Positions 1 through 14,373 of a stretch of 14,373 bases of DNA are shown one piece after another. Made by a program: the position numbers and the translations under genes. The stretch is taken from IMG/VR virus record IMGVR_UViG_2541047837_000005, positions 1-14,373 of that record, one strand, 5' to 3'. The DNA comes from a virus (lineage: Duplodnaviria; Heunggongvirae; Uroviricota; Caudoviricetes). Within the stretch, counting starts at the first letter, position 1; each line of letters begins with the position of its first letter. The notes under the pieces were generated by a model. The model did no database searches. It was not told the DNA's origin and worked only from the letters and a program-made list of their open reading frames with translations.

Positions 1-219
1 TTACATCCACATAATTTGCTGCCCTGACGGCAACGGGTGCGGCCTTACGGCGTGGACTTCTCCCGGCTTCACGATATATCGCTGTACCGACTCATAAGTG
101 ATGAATGTGGCGCTGCAATTCACGTTCTGACACTGGTGATAACGCTCTTTTGTCGTGTCAGTGATATAGCGACTTGTACGCGCATGTGCGGCATGCTGGC
201 ATAAAGGACAATGAAACAT
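1..219 (-). CDS. ogr: Ogr late-gene transcriptional activator, C4 zinc finger, 72 aa
   Basis: The 93-aa track ORF contains MFHCPLCQHAAHARTSRY...CQNVNC (Cys-x2-Cys-x22-Cys-x4-Cys) from the internal Met at 219; this matches the remembered P2 Ogr N-terminus and length. Stop is TAA at 1-3. Confidence 0.9.
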   Translation of the reverse strand: MFHCPLCQHAAHARTSRYITDTTKERYHQCQNVNCSATFITYESVQRYIVKPGEVHAVRPHPLPSGQQIMWM

Positions 220-300: not shown

Positions 301-1263
301 TCACTCATCATCTTCTGTTTCGTACTCCACATCAGAAAGCCTGACCTCAAGCTCCAGGGACGTCGTGAAGCCGCTATTATTCAGAAAATGTGTCACCTTA
401 GTGATTGTCCAGTCCTGCTCGTCTATGACGCGCTTAAAGCCTGACACTTTAACCGGTGTTTCCGTGTAAATATCTGCCCGACCGGTAGCCAGGCTGATGG
501 AGAACTCCGCCACACCCCGTTGCAGTTTATCCCACTTCGCCTGAGCGGCGCGCATGGCCTGCGCTTTCGTGGCATATACCGTAGTCAGGGCAAAAACGTT
601 GTCAGCCTCACCGGCCATGTATTCACCTTCGCGCGCTTCCGGTACTTTAGGCGCTTTCTTCTGCCTGACCGGTTTCGCTTTCGGGTGCTCCAGTGCGCGC
701 AGGTGTTTCTCTTTCTTTTTGCGTTTCAGTTTTACCTTCTGCTTTTGTGGCTTCGGGTCTTTGGTGTGTAACCACTTTGCCGTTACGCCGGTATAGGCTC
801 CACGGTCAGCAATCGCAAAATGATGGCGGTCGCCGTCGCTGCGGGTTATGGTGACCTGCGGGATTTTTTTACCACTGGCCGTCACCCCCTGCCCCGCTTT
901 GAGAAACAACAGTTTTCCCATTTTTACCGACACCTCACCGCCGTTGCGTTCTGCAAGACGGGTCAGGAATTTCGCATCAGACTCCTGCGACTGGTCGATG
1001 TGCGGGATTTTAATTCCGGCCAGTGACGGAGCGACACTAGCTTCCAGCCTGTTAACGGCGCGTTTTGTCGCTTCCGGCCACTTTTCATCCCACCTGTCGA
1101 CCGAAAACGCCCACGCCAGCCACGGCAGCAGATTTGCCGGACAGGTGTCCGGGTTCCACAGTTCACGAATACTGACCGGCGTTTTTTCAATTTCCGCACA
1201 GGCTTTTGCGGCGGCAACTTCAAGCGGTGATGAGCCGGTCGGCAGCAGTCGCGAATCACTCAT
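301..1263 (-). CDS. Chimeric tail ORF: about 70 aa resembling the baseplate protein gpI N-terminus fused in frame to the C-terminal region of tail protein gpD (deletion remnant), 320 aa
   Basis: N-terminus MSDSRLLPTGSSPLE...LWNPDTCPANLLPWLAWAFSVDRWDEKW resembles the gpI family; remainder (IPHIDQ...TITRSDGDRHHFAIADR...LELEVRLSDVEYETEDDE) resembles the gpD C-terminus; length 320 aa versus about 387 for P2 gpD; lies directly upstream of ogr as D does in P2. Confidence 0.6.
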   Translation of the reverse strand: MSDSRLLPTGSSPLEVAAAKACAEIEKTPVSIRELWNPDTCPANLLPWLAWAFSVDRWDEKWPEATKRAVNRLEASVAPSLAGIKIPHIDQSQESDAKFLTRLAERNGGEVSVKMGKLLFLKAGQGVTASGKKIPQVTITRSDGDRHHFAIADRGAYTGVTAKWLHTKDPKPQKQKVKLKRKKKEKHLRALEHPKAKPVRQKKAPKVPEAREGEYMAGEADNVFALTTVYATKAQAMRAAQAKWDKLQRGVAEFSISLATGRADIYTETPVKVSGFKRVIDEQDWTITKVTHFLNNSGFTTSLELEVRLSDVEYETEDDE

Positions 1264-1406
1264 CCGAGCCCCCGGTCACGACGCGGTATTCGGTGCAGAA
1301 AGACGCCTGCGTACTGTTGAGCACAATGTCGGCCAAGCACCTTGCCGACAACAATCAGCACTCCAATCATGAAAAGCGACAGGACGCTTTTTTCTTCTGC
1401 TGTCAT
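1260..1406 (-). pseudogene. 48-aa remnant ORF: holin gpY-like N-terminus (MTAEEKSVLSLFMIGVLIVVGKVL) joined to a short tail that ends in an ATGA overlap with the next ORF
   Basis: Translated by hand from the minus strand (below the ORF-track size cutoff). GGGAG ribosome-binding site upstream of the ATG at 1406; hydrophobic helix typical of a holin N-terminus; TGA stop overlaps the ATG at 1263. Confidence 0.35.
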
Positions 1407-1409
1407 GCG

Positions 1410-1613
1410 TTACTCCCACAGATTGACAGTTTCAGCCACGGGCGCGGTCTGAACGTCGGGCAGTTCGACGGCGGTGCCGTGTGGCAGCACCGCACCCAGT
1501 TCAGCCAGTCCCGGATTTGCGGCGAGCACGGCCTCGACCACGCCCTCAGTGCGCCCGTAATACCGGACACAAATGGCGTCGAGCGTGTCGCCCTGTAGCG
1601 CAAAGGTCTTCAT
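1410..1613 (-). CDS. X: Tail protein X (LysM-like), 67 aa
   Basis: MKTFALQGDTLDAICVRYYGRTEGVVEAVLAANPGLAELGAVLPHGTAVELP from the internal Met of the 90-aa track ORF; ATGA start/stop overlap with L at 1611-1615. Confidence 0.85.
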   Translation of the reverse strand: MKTFALQGDTLDAICVRYYGRTEGVVEAVLAANPGLAELGAVLPHGTAVELPDVQTAPVAETVNLWE

Positions 1614-2122
1614 CAGATTTGACTCACGATGCAGCGCGGCTTGTCCTGGATGCGCGCCACTGCCCAGCGCATATCCCGCCACAGCTCATCAATGGTGCTG
1701 TCAATGCTGTCGGCCTTCTTGTCGCCTTTCGCACTGGCATCCACGCCGCGATAACGCTCATAAAGCGACGCGGTCGCCATCGCACACACGGCGCGCTCGT
1801 AGTAAAAAACTTTGATGCTTTCACCGTCGATGTCGTCCGCCGGGACGTCCGCCAGACGCGTAAAACCGGCGGCAATTTTCTGTTCGCGGTACTCGTACAG
1901 CTCCGCATTCGTCTCCGCCATGCCTGACTTGATGGCCTCACGCAGACGGGCGGGGGCGACGGTCTGCTCAAGGCGCATACGTTCCCGGACGCGCTTCGGG
2001 TCGATATCGGGAAAAAAGAACGTGTTTTTAATCACCGGCTCGTCGCCTGCCGGTTGCGGGATGACCACCGTACCCTCACCGGACACGGGAGCCTCCTTTC
2101 GCGGAATAATCAGCGTCATCAT
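1613..2122 (-). CDS. L: Head completion / capsid stabilisation protein gpL, 169 aa
   Basis: Starts MMTLIIPRKEAPVSGEGTVVIPQPAGDEP at the internal Met of the 189-aa track ORF; length matches P2 gpL; positioned between M and X. Confidence 0.85.
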   Translation of the reverse strand: MMTLIIPRKEAPVSGEGTVVIPQPAGDEPVIKNTFFFPDIDPKRVRERMRLEQTVAPARLREAIKSGMAETNAELYEYREQKIAAGFTRLADVPADDIDGESIKVFYYERAVCAMATASLYERYRGVDASAKGDKKADSIDSTIDELWRDMRWAVARIQDKPRCIVSQI

Positions 2123-2221: not shown

Positions 2222-2659
2222 TTAACTGGCTTTCTTTTTCGGGCGTCCACGTTTTGCCGGTGTCGCACTCCGGGTCTTACGCGGGGCGCGGGTGGCCGCT
2301 TTGGGCTGCGGCTCCGGCTTCGGTTTCAGCTCCCGCTCCAGTCGTTCAATCTCTTTTTTGACGCCTGCCTGACAGTCGAGCTGTGTCGCACGTTGCAGGT
2401 GAGCCATCAGAATGTCATCCTGTGCACCTTTGCCCTGCTCCAGCACGCCGTTCACCCACGGCAACCAGAACGGCAGCAGTTCGCGTTTTTTCGCGGCCTT
2501 CAGCTCTTTTGAATAAATCGCTTTCAGTGTGCGCTGGTCTGCGGCGAGCTTAACCAGCATCTGCTCATAGACAGTTGCATGTCGCAGCGGGGCGGCTTCC
2601 CGCTGCGCGGTCATCGCTGCCGAGACCCGCATCATGTGGCGCTGTGCGGGACTCGTCAT
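2222..2659 (-). CDS. M: Terminase small subunit gpM-like, internally shortened (145 aa versus about 247 in P2)
   Basis: Ends recognisable (MTSPAQRHMMRVSAAMTAQREAAP at the N-terminus; basic KPKPEPQPKAATRAPRKTRSATPAKRGRPKKKAS tail); position between N and L; about 100 aa shorter than remembered P2 gpM. Confidence 0.7.
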   Translation of the reverse strand: MTSPAQRHMMRVSAAMTAQREAAPLRHATVYEQMLVKLAADQRTLKAIYSKELKAAKKRELLPFWLPWVNGVLEQGKGAQDDILMAHLQRATQLDCQAGVKKEIERLERELKPKPEPQPKAATRAPRKTRSATPAKRGRPKKKAS

Positions 2660-2662
2660 CGG

Positions 2663-3736
2663 TTACGCTCCCGGCTCTGCGGTCGCCTTAGCCGGTGTGG
2701 AGAAATCACCGACCTTAATTTTTTCCACCAGACAACCGGCGGCGTAGTCTTCCACCACGTAATCAATGTTCATTGACTCGTAGTTCTCCACGCGGTCGAG
2801 TTTCGGGTTTTCCTCAATCACGCGGCGATGGCTGTCATCCATGTAGTAGATGGACAGGTTTTCCAGCTTCGTGATGAGCATCGCATCCGCCGGGAAGTAC
2901 GGGACGCGTACCGCCGGCAGGTTACCGATGCGTTTCTGGCTGATGATGACGTCAGCGGCCAGCATTTCGCTGTTGTCCTGCTCCTTGTTGACGATGGGGA
3001 AATATTTGTCCGCCAGCAGCTGACGCCCCACAATCACCACAAGGTCAGGGTCTTCCTGATACCACGGCTCAATCAGGTTGTTGGTCGCATCCATCACCAG
3101 TGCATCGAGGCTGGCATAATCACCGCTCTTACCCACGCGGATGACCTCAGAGGTGGTGTGCCCTTCCTCGTCAGTGACCTTGCTCATCACGCGCGCCGGG
3201 GCTTCATTGCGGTATTTCTGCAGCCAGCCGACCGCCACATCCTGCAGCATCGGATTGCTGCTGCGGTCAGAGGTTTCGGCACGCCTCACGCCGTTAAAAC
3301 CGGCCATGATGAAATCAAGGGACTGGCGTTTGATAATGGCGTTACGGACACGGAGCTGGAAATCCTGATAACGCGCCCACAGGTCCAGCGTTTTGTAGCG
3401 GATATAAAAATCGAAGTTAATCTGGTCGCATTCGTACTTGTTTGACGCCAGCTTCGAGAAGTCCTTCGGCTGACGCTCGGTGCCACCGGCGGTGTCGGTG
3501 GTGCTGGCGATGGAGCCGGTGACACCGATGCCAATTTTTTCCCCTTTCATTTCGCTGACCGGCACAATGTTGATGCGGGTCAGAAAGTCAGAGGACTCCT
3601 GCATGGTGTTCATCAGGGTCTGGGTGACCGACGGTTCAACGGTGAATTTTTTCGACACATCACCGGCGTCGATGCCGTTCAGTTCGGCAACACGGGACAG
3701 GTAAGCATTAAATTTAAAGCGGGTTTCCTGGCGCAT
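2663..3736 (-). CDS. N: Major capsid protein precursor gpN, 357 aa
   Basis: Full-length match in size and sequence character to P2 gpN (MRQETRFKFNAYLSRVAELNGIDAGDVSKKF...); AGGA ribosome-binding site upstream; follows O. Confidence 0.92.
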   Translation of the reverse strand: MRQETRFKFNAYLSRVAELNGIDAGDVSKKFTVEPSVTQTLMNTMQESSDFLTRINIVPVSEMKGEKIGIGVTGSIASTTDTAGGTERQPKDFSKLASNKYECDQINFDFYIRYKTLDLWARYQDFQLRVRNAIIKRQSLDFIMAGFNGVRRAETSDRSSNPMLQDVAVGWLQKYRNEAPARVMSKVTDEEGHTTSEVIRVGKSGDYASLDALVMDATNNLIEPWYQEDPDLVVIVGRQLLADKYFPIVNKEQDNSEMLAADVIISQKRIGNLPAVRVPYFPADAMLITKLENLSIYYMDDSHRRVIEENPKLDRVENYESMNIDYVVEDYAAGCLVEKIKVGDFSTPAKATAEPGA

Positions 3737-3794
3737 AGTTTTTCCTGAAATTAAGGGTTAATCGTGAAGGTTTTCCCGGACTGACTGACGCCGG

Positions 3795-4649
3795 TCAGCA
3801 GTTCGTCATCAGGGCGTCACCGCCACCACCGGTGGCCTTGCTGCGGCGCTGCTGGGTCAGACTTTCGGTGTGGTCGAGACTGTTTTTCAGGCGGGTGAAT
3901 GCCTGGCTGGTTTCATCCGCCCTGTCAGTCACCTCCTGCTTAAGTGCGGAAAAGGCGGTTTCCATCTCAGAGAGGCGCTGCTCAGTGGCGCTCAGTTTTT
4001 CCTGCACATGTTCAGCAACAGCGGTCACCGCTTCATGCACGTCATTCAGACGGGCGTCATCGCTGGCCTGTTTGCGGCCAAAAATGGATTTCACCTTTTC
4101 GGTCAGGGCGGTGAACACGGTTTCAGGCAGGTCTTCAAATTCCAGCTCAACAGGCGTTGCCACTGAAATCAGGTTTTCAGGGCTTAATTTGAAGCGGTTC
4201 AGGGGGTTGTGTTTTGCCGTGCGGCAGAATTCCAGGTATTCCGTGCCGAGGCTTGCCGGGTCATCGGTGACGGCCAGCCCCACCAGATAACATTTGCCGG
4301 TATTGGCAAAGTTCGGCTGAATTTCCATTGAGGTGTAGACTTTCTGCGCGGCCTTGTTCATCGCGATAAGGTCATCGGTCGGGGTGATTTTCGCAAACAG
4401 CGCCCATTTGCCTTTCAGCGCCGAATCGTCGTCAATCTTTTCGGCCTTCAGTTCGACCACATCGCCATAACGTTTAAAAATACCGTCAGGCAGGATGCCG
4501 CGCAGATGTTCCAGGTTAATGCGGCAACCGTAGACACGCGGGTCAAAGGTTTCAGCCATTTCCTGAATATCCTGCGCACTGATGACACGCCCGTCACAGG
4601 TGTCACCCTCAACGCCGATACGAAAGAATTTTGAGACTTTTTTTGCCAT
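3795..4649 (-). CDS. O: Capsid scaffolding protein gpO, 284 aa
   Basis: MAKKVSKFFRIGVEGDTCDGRVISAQDIQEMAETFDP from the internal Met of the 306-aa track ORF; length equals P2 gpO; AGGA ribosome-binding site upstream. Confidence 0.88.
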   Translation of the reverse strand: MAKKVSKFFRIGVEGDTCDGRVISAQDIQEMAETFDPRVYGCRINLEHLRGILPDGIFKRYGDVVELKAEKIDDDSALKGKWALFAKITPTDDLIAMNKAAQKVYTSMEIQPNFANTGKCYLVGLAVTDDPASLGTEYLEFCRTAKHNPLNRFKLSPENLISVATPVELEFEDLPETVFTALTEKVKSIFGRKQASDDARLNDVHEAVTAVAEHVQEKLSATEQRLSEMETAFSALKQEVTDRADETSQAFTRLKNSLDHTESLTQQRRSKATGGGGDALMTNC

Positions 4650-4822
4650 TGTCAGGAGTCCTGAATAGTGATTAGAGGAGTCACATGTCGGCATCAGTTT
4701 CCCGACGATACGCATCCTCCGCCATCAGTCCCGGATGGCTTATCACTGACACAACAGCACCTTAGCGAATCGCGGGGCGCGACTCAGTAGCCTTGCCGTG
4801 TATTCATCACGGCGAGGTATTC
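4650..4822. promoter_or_regulatory. Divergent late-promoter region between O (minus) and P (plus); contains a 7-bp direct repeat AGGAGTC (4654-4660 and 4676-4682) and an inverted repeat CCGTG-N7-CACGG (4794-4812)
   Basis: Intergenic position between divergently oriented late operons, as in P2; repeats read by eye; no clear TGT-N12-ACA Ogr-type site found. Confidence 0.4.
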
Positions 4823-5560
4823 ATGACCATCACCACAGACACCACTCTTTTACACGACCCGCGTCGTCAGGCGGCGCTGCTGTACTGGCAGGGGTTTTCC
4901 GTGCCGCAGATTGCCGCCATGTTGCAGATGAAACGCCCGACGGTGCAGAGCTGGAAACAGCGCGACGGCTGGGACAGCGTTGCCCCCATCAGCCGTGTCG
5001 AAATGAGTCTGGAAGCGCGGCTGACCCAGCTCATCATCAAACCGCAGAAAACCGGCGGTGACTTCAAGGAAATTGACCTGCTGGGACGCCAGATTGAACG
5101 GCTGGCGCGGGTCAACCGCTACAGTCAGACCGGCAACGAGGCAGACCTTAATCCGAACGTCGCTAACCGCAACAAAGGCGGGCGTCGCAAACCGAAAAAG
5201 AATTTTTTCAGTGACGAGGCCATCGAAAAGCTGGAGCAGATTTTCTTTGAGCAGTCTTTCGACTATCAGTTGCACTGGTACACGCCGGAAATGAAAACCG
5301 CAATGGTGCTCAAGGCAAAAGACGTCATCCGCCGTGGCTGTCTGGAATACGACGTCAGCGCCACCGACATCACCAGCTCGTTTATGGCTATCCGCAAGAC
5401 CATGACCAGCAGCGGACGCAGTGCCACCTATGAGGCCAGCCGCAGCGAGGAAGCCAGCCACGCCGACCTCGCCTGGGCGACCATGCACGCCCTGTTAAAT
5501 GAGCCACTCACCGCCGGTATCAGCACCCCGCTGACATCCACCATTCTGGAGTTTTACTGA
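4823..5560 (+). CDS. P: Terminase large (ATPase) subunit gpP-like, internally shortened (245 aa versus about 590 in P2); no Walker A motif seen
   Basis: MTITTDTTLLHDPRRQAALLYWQGFSVPQIAAMLQMKRPTVQSWKQRDGWDS N-terminus after GAGG ribosome-binding site at the internal ATG 4823; stop TGA overlaps the Q ATG at 5560; no GxxxxGK[ST] in the translation. Confidence 0.7.
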   Translation: MTITTDTTLLHDPRRQAALLYWQGFSVPQIAAMLQMKRPTVQSWKQRDGWDSVAPISRVEMSLEARLTQLIIKPQKTGGDFKEIDLLGRQIERLARVNRYSQTGNEADLNPNVANRNKGGRRKPKKNFFSDEAIEKLEQIFFEQSFDYQLHWYTPEMKTAMVLKAKDVIRRGCLEYDVSATDITSSFMAIRKTMTSSGRSATYEASRSEEASHADLAWATMHALLNEPLTAGISTPLTSTILEFY

Positions 5561-6594
5561 TGAGCAAGAAAAAAGGGAAAACACCGCAACCTGCGGCAAA
5601 AAAAATGACCGCCAGCGCCCCGAAAATGGAGGCATTCACCTTTGGTGAGCCGGTGCCGGTACTCGACCGCCGTGACATTCTGGATTACGTCGAGTGCATC
5701 AGTAACGGCAGATGGTATGAGCCACCGGTCAGCTTTACCGGTCTGGCAAAAAGCCTGCGTGCTGCCGTGCATCACAGCTCACCGATTTACGTCAAACGTA
5801 ATATTCTGGCCTCGACATTTATCCCGCATCCGTGGCTTTCCCAGCAGGATTTCAGCCGCTTTGTGCTGGATTTTCTGGTGTTCGGTAATGCGTTTCTGGA
5901 AAAGCGTTACAGCACCACCGGTAAGGTCATCAGACTGGAAACCTCACCGGCAAAATATACCCGCCGAGGCGTGGAAGAGGATGTTTACTGGTGGGTGCCG
6001 TCCTTCCATGAGCCGACACCTTTCGCGCCCGGCTCCGTGTTTCACCTGCTGGAGCCGGATATTAATCAGGAGCTGTACGGCCTGCCGGAATATCTCAGCG
6101 CCCTTAACTCTGCCTGGCTGAATGAGTCGGCCACGCTGTTCCGCCGCAAGTATTACGAAAACGGCGCACATGCCGGATACATCATGTACGTCACCGATGC
6201 CGTGCAGGATCGCAACGATATCGAAATGCTCCGCGAAAACATGGTGAAGTCGAAAGGCCGCAACAACTTTAAAAATCTGTTTCTCTATGCCCCGCAAGGG
6301 AAAGCCGACGGCATTAAAATTATCCCGCTCAGTGAAGTGGCGACGAAGGACGATTTTTTTAATATCAAAAAAGCCAGCGCCGCTGACCTGCTGGACGCAC
6401 ACCGCATCCCCTTTCAGTTGATGGGCGGCAAGCCGGAGAACGTCGGGTCACTGGGAGATATTGAGAAAGTGGCAAAGGTCTTTGTCCGCAATGAGCTTAT
6501 CCCGTTACAGGACAGGATCCGCGAGATAAACGGCTGGCTCGGTCAGGAGGTCATCCGCTTTAAAAACTACTCACTGGACACTGACAACGGCTGA
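5560..6594 (+). CDS. Q: Portal protein gpQ, 344 aa
   Basis: Length and sequence character of P2 gpQ; translationally coupled to P; followed by a terminator and cos. Confidence 0.92.
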   Translation: MSKKKGKTPQPAAKKMTASAPKMEAFTFGEPVPVLDRRDILDYVECISNGRWYEPPVSFTGLAKSLRAAVHHSSPIYVKRNILASTFIPHPWLSQQDFSRFVLDFLVFGNAFLEKRYSTTGKVIRLETSPAKYTRRGVEEDVYWWVPSFHEPTPFAPGSVFHLLEPDINQELYGLPEYLSALNSAWLNESATLFRRKYYENGAHAGYIMYVTDAVQDRNDIEMLRENMVKSKGRNNFKNLFLYAPQGKADGIKIIPLSEVATKDDFFNIKKASAADLLDAHRIPFQLMGGKPENVGSLGDIEKVAKVFVRNELIPLQDRIREINGWLGQEVIRFKNYSLDTDNG

Positions 6595-6599
6595 ACATC

Positions 6600-6621
6600 G
6601 CCGCCTGCGGGCGGCTTTTTT
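6600..6621 (+). terminator. Rho-independent terminator after Q: GCCGCC-TGCG-GGCGGC stem-loop followed by TTTTTT
   Basis: Perfect 6-bp GC stem with 4-nt loop and a 6-T run immediately 3' of the Q stop codon. Confidence 0.6.
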
Positions 6622-6763
6622 ACAACCCGCCATCACGCCCTCACACGCTCACCACCGCACAAAACAGCCCGCATACACACCAACGCCCCGGCGAACAATC
6701 TAAACGCCATCACGACGCGCTCAGACGCTGAAAAAATAAAATCAGCACCACCGCCAGCGCGCA

Positions 6764-6782
6764 GTGCTTTCCCCGCCTCGCC
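6764..6782 (-). other. cos cohesive-end site (19-nt P2 cohesive end GGCGAGGCGGGGAAAGCAC, present as its reverse complement)
   Basis: Exact 19-mer GTGCTTTCCCCGCCTCGCC on the plus strand, about 170 bp beyond Q, where cos lies in P2. Confidence 0.75.
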
Positions 6783-6905
6783 CGCCCGCTTCATGGGTCG
6801 GTTTTAATGCAGGTGCATGACCACCATGGTGTCGCGCCTATTCTGACGGAGCACGATCTAAACTAGCAGCTCCAACGCATGCAAAACAATGCGCCTAATG
6901 CTTGC

Positions 6906-6918: not shown

Positions 6919-7049
6919 AAAATCGTGTAGAAAGATATAGCAAAGTCTGCATATTAAAGCTGGCTGGCACGCAACTCATATCGCAGTGATTTGCCAATTA
7001 CATTGCGCAAAATTTACACTAACAACGGTTATCAAGAAGCAGGCGCAAA

Positions 7050-7204: not shown

Positions 7205-8290
7205 ATGGGTTACGAAGTTGATTTCTTAGCAGTTGGAGAAAAAAAAAGTGGAGATGCTATCTGCATAAGATGGGGCAACCTCCACGGAACAAGAGCAGAG
7301 CAAAAAGTTGTCGTAATTGATGCGGGGTACGCAAGCACTGGTCCACAAATAATTGAACATTTACAGAAATACTATCATACAAATACTATTGACTTACTCA
7401 TATCCACGCATCCAGATAGCGACCATGCTGGCGGCCTTGAGCATGTGATTGAGAATGCGGAAGTCAAAGAGTTCTGGATTCACCAACCTTGGGAGCATAA
7501 TGAAAATCTCGCGCAGGAATTTGCTGATGGAAGGATAACAGATGCAAGTATTGCCAGACGTATACAAGATAATCTACAAAAAGCCTATGATGCCGTCAAA
7601 TCAGCGAAAAAAAAAGGAATAGAAATTAAGGAGCCTTTTCAAGGCAGGACTTGGGACAATTCTAAACTGGTTGTTATTGGACCAACACAAGCATACTATG
7701 AAACATTAATCCCCGATTTTGCAAGAATGCCTGAAAAAGCAGAAACAACTGCAACCAGTGGTACAGATGCATATAACTACTTTTTTGAGAAAGCCAAAGA
7801 ACAAGTCGAGTATATTGCTGATTGGTTCTCTGATGAGGGAATTGATGACAAGGACACAACTACTGCACAAAACAATTCAAGCGTTATATTAAAAATTGAA
7901 ATTGACAATAAAACACTAGTATTTACAGGTGATGCAGGAATAACTGCATTAGATATGGCTGCTGATCATATAAATAATAACTCATTATCATTTATTCAAG
8001 TGCCCCACCATGGAAGCAGGAGAAACATCGGTCCAGCGGTGCTAAATAAGCTCGTTGGAAATATTGTAAGCGAAGGAGGAAGAAGTGGTGTTTGTGCATT
8101 TATATCATGCGCACCGGATTCCGATAAACACCCTCATCAAGCGGTCATTAATGCTTTTACAAGGCGTGGAGCCAAAGTAGTCGCCACAGAAGGCACCAAT
8201 AAACGCCATTCTAGTAATGCCCCCGCCAGAGATGGCTGGACTGCAGTCACCCCACGCTCATACGCAAGGAGTTATAAGACTGAAGAATAA
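7205..8290 (+). CDS. Metallo-beta-lactamase-fold hydrolase, ComEC/Rec2-like nuclease-type domain, 361 aa; cargo gene
   Basis: Motifs AVGEKKSGDAICI...VVVIDAGY, STHPDSDHAGG (His69/Asp71/Asp73/His74), LVFTGDAG, VPHHGS, and C-terminal HPH...VATEGTN, typical of ComEC-type MBL domains; about 35% GC in sampled lines; GAAGGG ribosome-binding site; position of old in P2. Confidence 0.75.
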   Translation: MGYEVDFLAVGEKKSGDAICIRWGNLHGTRAEQKVVVIDAGYASTGPQIIEHLQKYYHTNTIDLLISTHPDSDHAGGLEHVIENAEVKEFWIHQPWEHNENLAQEFADGRITDASIARRIQDNLQKAYDAVKSAKKKGIEIKEPFQGRTWDNSKLVVIGPTQAYYETLIPDFARMPEKAETTATSGTDAYNYFFEKAKEQVEYIADWFSDEGIDDKDTTTAQNNSSVILKIEIDNKTLVFTGDAGITALDMAADHINNNSLSFIQVPHHGSRRNIGPAVLNKLVGNIVSEGGRSGVCAFISCAPDSDKHPHQAVINAFTRRGAKVVATEGTNKRHSSNAPARDGWTAVTPRSYARSYKTEE

Positions 8291-8295
8291 TTCGT

Positions 8296-8317
8296 TAAGC
8301 TGCCTTAGGGCAGCTTA
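8296..8317. terminator. Hairpin TAAGCTGCC-TTAG-GGCAGCTTA between the convergent cargo genes (candidate bidirectional terminator)
   Basis: Perfect 9-bp stem with 4-nt loop starting 6 nt after the MBL gene stop, AT-rich on both sides; the stop codon of the minus-strand gene lies in the loop. Confidence 0.5.
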
Positions 8318-8793
8318 TTATTAGCCTTACTCACTCTTAATGTAATAAACTTAATTTGCTTAACGTACGACACAATAAAAACAAAAATCAAAAACAATGA
8401 AATCCATTTCGACGCCATGTAATCACCACCAACTACAAACGAAACAAAAAACAAAGAAAACAAAAAAACCAAGGACATAGAGAATAACGTCCTATACATA
8501 TTTGCAGTTTCTTGAAGAAGCTCTATTTTATTATCCTTTCTACATGCTGAGATATATTCCTCATATGGAACAAATTTTACCAGCCCCAAAAATTTCAACA
8601 CAGGCTCAAAAACAATAGACCCAATCCTTCCGATAATTATCCCCGTAAAATAGTAAAGTACCACATTCTTAACAACATCATCTGTGGATAATATCACATT
8701 GGTTGCCCGCTCAAACAAATAAATAAATAAAGCACCGGGAAAGAGATTGTTAAATATATTATAAGACGATATTTTTTCCCATAAACCATCCAT
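8305..8793 (-). CDS. Small multi-pass membrane protein of unknown function, 162 aa; cargo gene
   Basis: Three to four hydrophobic stretches (GALFIYLF; VVLYYFTGIIIGRIGSIVFEPVL; LFSMSLVFLFSLFFVSFVVGG; WISLFLIFVFIVSYV); ATG at 8793 with AAAGGTG ribosome-binding site (the track ORF starts at an upstream GTG); AT-rich. Confidence 0.65.
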   Translation of the reverse strand: MDGLWEKISSYNIFNNLFPGALFIYLFERATNVILSTDDVVKNVVLYYFTGIIIGRIGSIVFEPVLKFLGLVKFVPYEEYISACRKDNKIELLQETANMYRTLFSMSLVFLFSLFFVSFVVGGDYMASKWISLFLIFVFIVSYVKQIKFITLRVSKANNKLP

Positions 8794-8908: not shown

Positions 8909-9061
8909 TCATTTTGTAAAAGCAGAATATCCCAAACACACATCGATTGTAGGATATATAAACGTCTTCCTGCCATATGTTATGGTAGCCCCTCGCGCCA
9001 GCGCCTCAAGCTCCCATCGCTGCGGCCTGATACCGTTCTGAGCAAGGTCAACGCGGATACT
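8909..9061 (-). pseudogene. Possible out-of-frame C-terminal remnant of replication gene A (...IRVDLAQNGIRPQRWELEALARGATITYG...)
   Basis: ORF in a different frame continues directly past the A stop (9048) to 8909 with GC content like the P2 core; assignment to the A C-terminus is from imperfect memory. Confidence 0.3.
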
Positions 9062-10766
9062 CGTTAACGTCATCCGACGGGCTACGGGCGACTCTGACAG
9101 TCTGACAATCGCGCGGAACATTTGCCCCACCCTGCGCGCTGATATACAACGCAAAATCACCACTGTCTGCGGCGGCGCGTGCAGCCTCGACGCGCTCGTC
9201 AAACTCATCAGCAATGCTGACGCCGCGAGGCAATTTGCGTAGTTCACGGTAAGCCCCCATTGTCGGCAGGCCAACCGTTTTAAATTGCGGAATGCGCCAC
9301 GTTGACGCCCATGCGGTAACAGCCGCGGCAGTATCTTTCAGCGGTCTGCCGGTATCGTTATCGAGCTGCCCATCCAGTGCATAGCCGTCGATATTTTTTG
9401 AGATGTATTTCGCGATATACCCCGCAGCACCGCCCCGGTTAAGATGTTTTGCCTGAAAACGGTTTCGCGCGGCTCCTCTTTCGTCGCCATCCTCTTTGAG
9501 CGCATAGCGACGCATGATTTCGATAATCTGGTTACGCTGGCGTGGATTACAAAAAAGCATCATATGCCAGTGCGGCGTTCCGTCGTGGTGTGGCTCGACG
9601 ACACGCAAACCGTAGGCCTGTAAATCATTATCCTTGAATGCCGTGCGCATCAGGCTCCAGATACGGCAGAGATAACGCTGCGCATCCTTTGGATTAAATG
9701 CCTCATCGTTCCAGCCGTGATTAAGCTGAACGGTTTTACTTTCGCCTTTTCCGACCTGACGTGTCGGGTGATACTTTGACGGCGCGGTCAGCGTGATAAA
9801 CATCCCCACATCACCCTCTGCAGCGGCGTAACGCTCAATACCGGCAATGGTGTTCATCAGCTCCATCCGGCGAATTTCAGGATTAGAAATACTGCCCATC
9901 ACCTTACTGATAAGGTCGATGCGCTCGCCGGTTTCCTTATTTTCAAGGTCACACGATTTAAGAAATTCCAGATTTGCCTGGCGGCGTGCACGCACATCAC
10001 GAATGGCATGTTTACTGGCATAAGGAGAACGGTCTTTATTGACCTCCCCGACAGCAATCAGTAACGCCTCATGCCAGCGCATACGCTGGCCTTTAAGCTG
10101 ATGAGTCCACCACTCATCGTTAAACAGACGGGCAATGGCAGAATATGCCTGCCTCGTGGTCATCTGCCCTTTACGGTATTTTTTCCAGTAGAGAGGGGAA
10201 ATATTGAAAGCTCGTGCAGCGCCAGCAACATGACCATACAGGTGAGCCTGCGCCTCATCCGTAAACAGCGATTCTTTCTCGCCATGCGCATCCACCCAGG
10301 CATCGCAGAGTTCCTCATACATCATGAAAAGCTGTGATGAGATACGGGCGGCAAACTTTTTCAGCTCCTTGTCATTCATTCCAGGCAAACGCGCATAATG
10401 GTCACGCTCTGCCAGAAACAGCAACGACGCGTCGGTGTTCATTTCATGGCGCTGATTCACACGCTCAATGCGCGGCCATAAACGACGCTGAAAAGTGGAT
10501 GTGAGGAAATAAAACCCGTGCACCGGGCTTTTATTGCGCCGGATGTAGTCATAGCGTGAAGTAAACAGCGAGCGCAAAAAGTAAGGCAGGCGATTAATCG
10601 TGGATAAAACACCTTGCACCTGACGCATCTCGTCACGTGTAAGGGGTCTTTCGCGCCCGACGGCCTCGCGTGGCGCGTTCCATGCATAAGCACCGGTAAA
10701 CGTCTCACCGGTGCCTGCGGCAAATGCTGACGGAGGGACAAAACGCCCGGAGGCTTTAACGGCCAT
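9048..10766 (-). CDS. A: Rolling-circle replication initiator gpA, C-terminally truncated (572 aa from the ATG versus about 761 in P2)
   Basis: MAVKASGRFVPPSAFAAGTG start at the internal ATG 10766 (the track ORF begins at an upstream TTG); HWHMM metal-binding motif and GYIAKYISK active-site tyrosine pair present; ends abruptly ...SDDVNEYPR. Confidence 0.85.
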   Translation of the reverse strand: MAVKASGRFVPPSAFAAGTGETFTGAYAWNAPREAVGRERPLTRDEMRQVQGVLSTINRLPYFLRSLFTSRYDYIRRNKSPVHGFYFLTSTFQRRLWPRIERVNQRHEMNTDASLLFLAERDHYARLPGMNDKELKKFAARISSQLFMMYEELCDAWVDAHGEKESLFTDEAQAHLYGHVAGAARAFNISPLYWKKYRKGQMTTRQAYSAIARLFNDEWWTHQLKGQRMRWHEALLIAVGEVNKDRSPYASKHAIRDVRARRQANLEFLKSCDLENKETGERIDLISKVMGSISNPEIRRMELMNTIAGIERYAAAEGDVGMFITLTAPSKYHPTRQVGKGESKTVQLNHGWNDEAFNPKDAQRYLCRIWSLMRTAFKDNDLQAYGLRVVEPHHDGTPHWHMMLFCNPRQRNQIIEIMRRYALKEDGDERGAARNRFQAKHLNRGGAAGYIAKYISKNIDGYALDGQLDNDTGRPLKDTAAAVTAWASTWRIPQFKTVGLPTMGAYRELRKLPRGVSIADEFDERVEAARAAADSGDFALYISAQGGANVPRDCQTVRVARSPSDDVNEYPR

Positions 10767-13377: not shown

Positions 13378-14373
13378 ATGTCTATTAAAAAGCTCGATGA
13401 TGGTCGTTATGAAGTGGACGTCAGACCGCAGGGTGCAGATGGAAAACGTATCAGGCGGAAATTTAAAACTAAAGGTGAAGCTCAAGCATTCGAACGTCAT
13501 GTACTGGTTAACTACCACAACAAAGAGTGGTTGGAGAAACCAGCCGACCGCCGAACTCTTACAGAGTTGTTAGGCAGATGGTGGATATATCACGGAAAAT
13601 CACATGAGCGTGGAGATATTGAACGGGGGCGTTTAACGACAATAATCGCCAAATTTGCAGAAATGGGAGTGTCCAGAGCTGACCAGCTAACAAAGAAAAC
13701 GATAACTGATTATCGCGTTGTAATGATGAACGATGGTCTGAAACCAGCCAGCGTAAATCGACATCTGGCAATAATGAGCGGGATGTTCACCAAGTTAATT
13801 GACGCCGGTGAATACCACTCTCACAACCCGTTCCGTGAGATTAAACGGTTACGTGAAGCTGTTACGGAAATGGCTTTTTTGTCCAGTGAAGAGATTACGC
13901 GGCTGTTATCCATGCTTGATGGTGATGAATTAAATGCAACTCTGGTCTGCCTTTCTACTGGTGGACGCTGGAGTGAAGTGTCTAATTTAAAAGCTGAACA
14001 CATCATTAACCAGATGGTTACGTTTATGAAAACTAAAAACGGAAAACGCAGGACAATTCCCGTTTCGCAGGACCTGATTAAACGGATCAAGACCAAAAAT
14101 TCAGGCAGGCTTTTTAATGCCAGTTACTACAAAGTGCGTAACGCTCTCAGGGAAGTAAAACCCGATTTACCTGACGGACAAGCAGTACATGTTTTGAGGC
14201 ATACATTTGCCACACATTTTATAATGAATGGAGGTAACATAATCACATTGCAGCGCATCCTGGGTCATTCTAACATTCAGCAAACTATGACCTACGCACA
14301 CTTTGCACCGGATTTCTTACAAGATGCTGTGACTCTTAACCCGGTGTCAGGAATGTCCATAATGCGTCCATAA
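13378..14373 (+). CDS. int: Tyrosine integrase (P2 Int family), 331 aa
   Basis: N-terminus MSIKKLDDGRYEVDVRP; catalytic signature TGGRWSE, HVLRHTFATHF, GHSNIQQTMTYAHF; GGAGGG ribosome-binding site; TAA stop is the last codon of the window. Confidence 0.92.
   Translation: MSIKKLDDGRYEVDVRPQGADGKRIRRKFKTKGEAQAFERHVLVNYHNKEWLEKPADRRTLTELLGRWWIYHGKSHERGDIERGRLTTIIAKFAEMGVSRADQLTKKTITDYRVVMMNDGLKPASVNRHLAIMSGMFTKLIDAGEYHSHNPFREIKRLREAVTEMAFLSSEEITRLLSMLDGDELNATLVCLSTGGRWSEVSNLKAEHIINQMVTFMKTKNGKRRTIPVSQDLIKRIKTKNSGRLFNASYYKVRNALREVKPDLPDGQAVHVLRHTFATHFIMNGGNIITLQRILGHSNIQQTMTYAHFAPDFLQDAVTLNPVSGMSIMRP

Follow-up and report, generated by a model that had tools for sequence, protein, structure and literature searches.

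The 245-aa open reading frame at positions 4823..5560 on the plus strand of the window (the whole 14,373-nt stretch of DNA analysed in this study) was confirmed, by translation, Pfam search and alignment to the 590-aa intact protein, to be a deletion product of the large terminase gene P of the P2 family. We put at about 0.9 the probability that this P remnant is dead, having arisen by one of the five deletions of a decaying cryptic prophage, and that its frame was preserved by accident. The lesion itself is ordinary prophage decay, and its sole part worth follow-up is the reused right breakpoint at the Tyr498 codon of gpP.

Internal deletion of the large terminase gene

The P remnant begins with the ATG at 4823 and is closed by the TGA at 5558-5560. 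The mechanical list of open reading frames also includes a TTG at 4793, which would lengthen the product to 255 aa; the start in intact gpP genes is the ATG equivalent to 4823, not this TTG. At the other end the stop codon overlaps the ATG of the portal gene Q at the A of position 5560, forming the sequence TGATG. Full-length gpP is 590 aa in phage fiAA91-ss (YP_008766920.1) and in the prophage of strain EFF60, and 588 aa in vB_EcoM-813R9, in agreement with the preliminary description of this DNA, made from the sequence alone, which had noted a gpP cut to 245 aa, less than half of the expected length. The N-terminal region and the Q-coupled C-terminus that it had recognized correspond to gpP residues 1-152 and 498-590, respectively, and residues 153-497 are missing.

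Breakpoint analysis against the P genes of EFF60 and fiAA91-ss identified a single clean gap of 1,035 bp, equal to 345 codons and in frame. A 2,001-bp query around the remnant was aligned with 98-99% identity, in two pieces, on 3,036 bp of fiAA91-ss and many other Peduoviruses, including P2-like phages of Yersinia, Salmonella and Escherichia, and the DNA flanking the junction is 97-99% identical to both ends of the intact 1,773-bp P genes. The junction lies at a TA microhomology at 5279..5280 (plus strand), the dinucleotide that opens the codons of both Tyr153 (TAT) and Tyr498 (TAC) in the intact gene. The 5' remainder at 4823..5278 (plus strand) carries codons 1-152, with the Terminase_5 helix-turn-helix (residues 12-69) and a helical linker, while the 3' remainder at 5281..5560 (plus strand) carries codons 499-590, with the last 69 profile positions of Terminase_6C and the C-terminal tail.

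Domains lost and retained

In the intact gpP of fiAA91-ss, Pfam search gives Terminase_5 at residues 12-69, Terminase_6N at 164-386 and Terminase_6C at 413-571 (profile positions 1-154). The same search of the P remnant gave the helix-turn-helix domain Terminase_5 (PF06056; residues 12-69, E = 8.7e-28) and a part of Terminase_6C (PF17289; residues 153-226), covering profile positions 86-154 of 155 only, and found no ATPase domain and no match to Terminase_6N (PF03237). The 1,035-bp gap takes out the whole of Terminase_6N and the first 85 of the 155 profile positions of Terminase_6C, so that the ATPase and half of the nuclease are gone; the preliminary description had proposed the loss of the ATPase and nuclease core. 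The two checks named there gave the same answer, the profile search detecting a terminase ATPase in intact gpP and none in the remnant, and the alignment to full-length gpP resolving the remnant into two end pieces of a 590-aa protein, the homologues of which are not about 245 aa long. Stripped of its motor and of the first half of its nuclease, the P remnant would not act as a terminase. Among five features of a functional gpP, it retains the Terminase_5 domain and the position divergent from O with an overlap to Q, and lacks the other three, namely the ATPase domain, a complete nuclease domain and a length of about 590 aa. Search against NCBIfam release 20 gave sub-threshold matches only, such as TerS_not_xtmA with 24 bits against a cut-off of 120.

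One argument for the loss of ATPase has to be given up. The motif GxxxxGK[ST] is indeed absent from the P remnant, but it is also absent, together with its relaxed forms, from the two intact gpP sequences searched (fiAA91-ss and EFF60), so that its absence is not diagnostic of the lesion. The start of the Terminase_6N match of gpP is LKSRQIGAT (residues 164-172), which by comparison with the SRQLGKT motif of T4 gp17 we take to be a likely deviant Walker A, and the sole Walker B-like motif of intact gpP is LYVDE (residues 250-254). Both are located inside the deleted stretch. A sequence search of PDB with intact gpP gave nothing at E of 0.01 or below, and the catalytic residues thus cannot be mapped from a solved homologue. 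The AlphaFold2 model of the P remnant, computed from a shallow alignment of 29 sequences, gave block means of pLDDT between 66 and 88 for residues 11-100, the confident fold being confined to the N-terminal domain, and pLDDT below 50 at residues 172-245; independent folding of the orphan C-terminal piece is not predicted.

The prophage and its five deletions

The source of the window is an E. coli isolate (assembly GCA_000459235.1, a short-read scaffold of 4.16 Mb), in which a P2-like prophage is inserted between pflB and pflA. The limits of the window are exactly those of this prophage, its ends being the stop codons of ogr and int, and the gene calls of the source locus agree with our assignments. 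The reference was strain EFF60, where the same chromosomal site is occupied by a prophage that measures about 30 kb from ogr to int and looks intact. Compared with the EFF60 prophage the window has five deletions, which reduced an original element of about 30-33 kb to 14.4 kb.

The deletion from D to I, of about 9.4 kb, removed most of the tail genes. Its junction lies near 1053-1058, within an in-frame I::D fusion of 320 aa at 301..1263 (minus strand), composed of the N terminus of the baseplate gene I and the C terminus of gpD (Pfam Tail_P2_I at residues 1-64 and Phage_GPD at 109-304; the blocks were compared with L002). The deletion from J to the holin gene, of about 4.46 kb with its junction near 1333-1335, removed lysis, tail-completion and baseplate genes, and left an N-terminal stub of the holin joined to the 3' end of J at 1260..1406 (minus strand), which is not an in-frame fusion. 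Gene M for the terminase endonuclease, the small subunit (2222..2659, minus strand), has lost 306 bp in frame at a CA junction (2405-2406), giving 145 instead of 247 aa, and gene A for the replication endonuclease (9048..10766, minus strand) has lost 422 bp out of frame at a TAC junction (9058-9060), giving 572 instead of 759 aa. The deletion in P is the fifth. Three of the five (P, M and I::D) thus preserve the frame; the chance of three or more out of five is about 0.2 and not significant. With this figure, and with the J/holin junction not forming an in-frame fusion, selection for in-frame deletions was rejected as evidence.

The head genes retain the canonical layout of P2, with the plus-strand genes P and Q facing away from the minus-strand genes O, N, M and L. 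Genes L (head completion, 169 aa, 1613..2122, minus strand), N (major capsid, 357 aa, 2663..3736, minus strand), O (scaffold/protease, 284 aa, 3795..4649, minus strand) and Q (portal, 344 aa, 5560..6594, plus strand; Pfam Phage_portal) are intact and equal in length to the genes of intact prophages, and the 19-nt cohesive-end sequence of cos, GTGCTTTCCCCGCCTCGCC on the plus strand, is present at 6764..6782 and is identical to the annotated cosL end of fiAA91-ss. The preliminary description was therefore right that cos and the capsid genes remain. O is separated from the divergent P remnant by a late-promoter region of 173 bp; the sole match to the Ogr-box consensus TGT-N12-ACA in the window is at 7672, outside this intergenic region, and this count is below the chance expectation. 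The two ends of the prophage are formed by ogr (1-219, minus strand) and the integrase gene (13378..14373, plus strand), and X, cox, C, int and ogr are also intact. An intact P2-like prophage (Peduoviridae) has the late genes Q, P, O, N, M, L, X, lysis, R, S, V, W, J, I, H, G, FI, FII, E, T, U and D together with ogr, int, C, cox, B and A; this full set is not present in the window, the tail, lysis and baseplate genes being missing and M, P and A damaged.

Between Q/cos and A lies the cargo, a pair of genes that match the candidate defence system PDC-M48, one encoding a protein of MBL fold (ComEC/Avs1a-like; 7205..8290, plus strand; PADLOC PDC-M48 B, E = 6e-99) and the other a 162-aa protein (8305..8793, minus strand; PADLOC PDC-M48 A, E = 7e-49). 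The intact prophage of EFF60 has this pair too, and the location between Q/cos and A is a hotspot, a concept taken from earlier work (bioRxiv 10.1101/2021.01.21.427644). The block from A to int is 99.98% identical to that of the EFF60 prophage, which suggests that the decay of the window is of recent date.

From these observations the following course of events is proposed. By illegitimate recombination at the level of microhomology, the TA of Tyr153 would have been joined to the TA of Tyr498 with the loss of 1,035 bp in frame, leaving a protein with the N-terminal helix-turn-helix and the last 92 residues of gpP, devoid of the ATPase motor and the N-terminal half of the nuclease, which would thereby neither cut cos nor translocate DNA. 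The five deletions (D-to-I, J-to-holin, M, P and A) would together have shrunk the prophage between pflB and pflA to 14.4 kb. The maintained frame and the TGATG coupling to Q would be by-products of a deletion length divisible by three and are most simply taken as accidents, and the remnant protein is presumably neutral. It is safe to say, from the gene content, that the element would be unable to package its own DNA. The P lesion is not the sole packaging defect, as the terminase subunit M is also cut by 306 bp, and the damage extends beyond packaging, most tail and lysis genes being gone and the replication gene A truncated.

Other deletion alleles of gpP

The exact protein sequence of the P remnant is deposited at NCBI (WP_021544780.1 / EQU65687.1), under the name 'terminase gpP N-terminus-related DNA-binding protein', and was also found in an independent Logan assembly. 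The allele is thus already known to public databases under a generic name. Our search of the literature found no description of recurrent gpP deletions. At 90% identity the remnant forms a cluster of 3 members among about 15 billion proteins. Neither the deleted element nor the P junction of the window was found in any of 5,426 complete E. coli genomes, and exact and degenerate patterns of the P junction gave zero matches in viral_contigs, genome_contigs and metagenome_contigs.

A database search for gpP alleles, in which the matches listed were all 425 aa or shorter and the full-length sizes were taken from annotated phages and genomes, identified at least 14 independent in-frame alleles of 192-419 aa that keep both N and C termini, in lineages of E. 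coli, Salmonella, Klebsiella-type and Pseudomonas. Examples are WP_282834431.1 of E. coli ETEC4069 (385 aa, lacking 293-497), P0002/MEB5674461.1 (240 aa, lacking 164-513, junction TATCC), which is a member of the same 90% cluster and belongs to a much more intact prophage, and P0025 (192 aa, lacking 52-449). The alleles of ETEC4069, P0006 and P0030 have the right breakpoint at Tyr498 in common with the P remnant. Since the left breakpoints, the integration sites and the cargo of the other alleles all differ from those of the window, we consider their deletions to be independent events, and the existence of so many different internal deletions of gpP in other remnants argues for ordinary random decay.

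The remaining member of the cluster, L005 (ENA ERZ27271656 k141_95098), is a metagenome contig with a 245-aa allele, the P junction of which is identical to that of the window. Its second lesion is different, N being fused next to the tube gene. Along 3129-6812 of the window, L005 differs at 76 of 3,684 positions (2.1%), the nearest differences on either side of the P junction being at distances of 86 bp (left) and 46 bp (right). Inside the P remnant there are 9 differences, 8 of them synonymous; at most of these 9 sites, variation is also seen between the other P alleles in the comparison, of which two are intact. A junction shared despite such divergence and such a synonymous bias disfavours a single recent neutral event, and fits either an independent recurrence of the deletion or recombination of the flanks with live phages.

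Besides the alleles with both termini, gpP fragments with the N terminus only were encountered, many clusters of which are exactly 164 aa long with 70-100% identity (P0026, P0028, P0032, P0033, P0037, P0038, P0065, P0087, P0088 and others), a length that suggests either repeated truncation at one point or a separate family, near residue 130-164. Remnants of P2-like and 186-like prophages with multiple deletions are common (L004, L006, L007, L009-L011, L013, L016, L086 and L110), and their cos-adjacent cargo varies, including a retron Ec48-like reverse transcriptase, an AAA_23/MC4 set, an HNH protein and ThsB-TIR. The lesions of L010 are confined, within the locus, to O and P, together with a Q five residues shorter than usual, and this case suggests that the loss of P may come early in decay.

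Repeated use of the Tyr498 breakpoint

The finding that counts against random decay is the right breakpoint, which is non-random. At least six other independent deletions reuse the Tyr498 site to the nucleotide or within 3 nt, at L006 12568-12575, L007 10963-10964, L012 about 6985-6987, L016 10605-10607 (minus strand), L086 5647/5648 and L110 3269-3271. The left ends of these six are at P codons 293, 329 and 347, in the sheath gene, in J and at the start of H. Among the 14 gpP alleles, four have the right breakpoint at codon 498 or 499, one of them in a lineage only 56% identical in protein (simulation P of about 0.001, the test being post hoc). A site-anchored, and hence biased, pattern scan added three further deletions that end at the same nucleotide. 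None of their left ends is in P: one is in the sheath gene, with a loss of 14.7 kb, another in J, and the third where the tail-fibre gene H begins. Because some left ends lie outside P, selection for fusions of the N and C termini of gpP cannot explain the fixed Tyr498 site. All 7 events at Tyr498 retain the 3' end of P and Q.

The microhomologies at the Tyr498 events are TA, TAC, CTAC or CACGC. In a wider comparison (the window, L004-L013, L016 and L110), TA/TAC or CA is the microhomology at about 10 of 16 distinct junction sites, a share of TA/CA that by hand estimate is far above the dinucleotide expectation, and several partners on the deleted side are CAGCG, or TAC followed by G/C-rich bases. 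These features suggest that a sequence-biased deletion process stands behind the junctions. A hairpin or other secondary structure at the hot spot was rejected after DNA folding in 101-nt windows, the right and left sites giving z values between -0.2 and +0.8. Nicking by the phage A protein at a copy of an ori-like site was likewise not supported, gene A of the intact prophage containing no sequence similar to the breakpoint site, and inspection by eye showed no resemblance of the breakpoint to an invertase (cix/hix-like) site or a P2 att-like site.

A looser pattern anchored at Tyr498 matched at least 120 loci in metagenomes, of which only L086 and L110 are gpP junctions. The pattern was swamped by an abundant unrelated protein of gut bacteria that also contains YTPEMKTA (...THNQAVFDA YTPEMKTAR HTHIITGLPDT...; L017-L136 in metagenome_contigs), from which it follows that short back-translated patterns need a check at the protein level. 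The analogous pattern for the 186/Klebsiella-type lineage gave intact genes with Ile497 and no junctions.

It is conceivable, though in our estimation unlikely, that the Tyr498 breakpoint marks a site-preferential process of DNA breakage or joining that dismantles P2-like prophages, the loss of P then being directed, recurrent and early rather than a matter of random decay. In one model, a fixed site of nicking, cleavage or replication stalling would exist there, the 3' side of which is always kept, and variable upstream partners would be joined to it through TA, TAC or CA microhomology.

Alternative explanations

Other readings of the P remnant were weighed against that of a dead deletion derivative. 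An artefact of assembly, in which a collapsed or chimeric contig hides an intact P, deserves mention, as the source is a short-read scaffold (GCA_000459235.1) and five gaps in one prophage are unusual; it is very improbable, because the same protein is present in the independent Logan assembly and the same junction in the unrelated ENA metagenome contig, because the junction microhomologies of 2-3 nt are far below any assembler k-mer, and because a comparable P2-like remnant with multiple deletions exists in the complete genome of ETEC4069. We give still less credence to the view that the remnant is a genuine member of a naturally short family of about 245 aa related to the N terminus of gpP. 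The name given by NCBI and the existence of many proteins of 136-250 aa with Terminase_5 speak in its favour, but both halves of the remnant are 97-99% identical in DNA to the ends of intact P, its position is that of P between O and Q, its C-terminal half matches just the last 69 of the 155 nuclease profile positions, and its relatives of similar length are limited to two other deletion alleles.

More attention was paid to the idea, still improbable, that the remnant is retained as a functional mini-protein, a dominant-negative decoy made of the helix-turn-helix N-domain fused to the C-terminal tail and expressed from the Ogr-dependent late promoter upon infection by a P2-like phage or a P4-like satellite. 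Its targets would be gpM, cos DNA or the portal, and by stopping the invader from being packaged it would benefit the host. It would accord with the preservation of the frame and of the translational coupling to Q, with the retention of ogr, the late-promoter region and cos, with the NCBI name, and with the recurrence of in-frame fusions of the N and C termini in at least 14 independent alleles of several lineages, as well as with the identical junction on two backgrounds diverged by 2% with 8 of 9 differences synonymous. For the synonymous bias, however, divergence that predates the deletion, or recombination with live phages, is a sufficient explanation, and the use of Tyr498 by deletions in the sheath gene, J and H that are not gpP fusions indicates that recurrence takes place at the level of DNA and not by selection for a protein. 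Furthermore, the allele is very rare (a cluster of 3 in about 15 billion proteins, with no occurrence in the 5,426 complete E. coli genomes), unlike a beneficial gene, its C-terminal remnant is not predicted to fold, and it has no match among the PADLOC families, the profiles of known anti-phage defence.

Implications

In annotation, the ORF is best labelled a terminase pseudogene or remnant, neither a DNA-binding protein nor a terminase, and the element does not belong in counts of inducible phages or satellites. On its own the finding means that this prophage is dead. P2-like prophages are major carriers of anti-phage defence cargo in E. coli. If the bias to Tyr498 and to TA/CA junctions holds in a systematic survey, it would indicate that the fast inactivation of these prophages has a specific mechanism, and if the breakage is indeed site-preferential, the loss of P would be a step that turns phages into immobile carriers of defence cargo.

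Comparison with known terminases and prophages

The motor/nuclease architecture of terminases of the T4 gp17 type (Terminase_6N plus Terminase_6C) is also present in the parent gpP, which differs from them in an extra N-terminal helix-turn-helix domain of about 160 aa and in a non-canonical Walker A. Compared with gpP of fiAA91-ss, the P remnant occupies the same slot between O and Q, has the same Terminase_5 N-domain and the same stop/start overlap with Q, and its retained residues are identical except for E147D; it differs in that 153-497 are absent, a stretch that holds the entire ATPase together with the first 85 of the 155 nuclease profile positions. The prophages of a paper of 2014 were reportedly shrunk by successive deletions, with integrase, repressor and some structural genes left. 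The window was likewise shrunk by successive deletions and likewise retains integrase, repressor and some structural genes, whereas its remaining genes are without sign of selection and its decay looks recent, as judged from the 99.98% identity between A and int. Further close parallels are the alleles of ETEC4069, P0002 and P0025, which have the same kind of lesion in the same gene as the P remnant and belong to prophages with further deletions.
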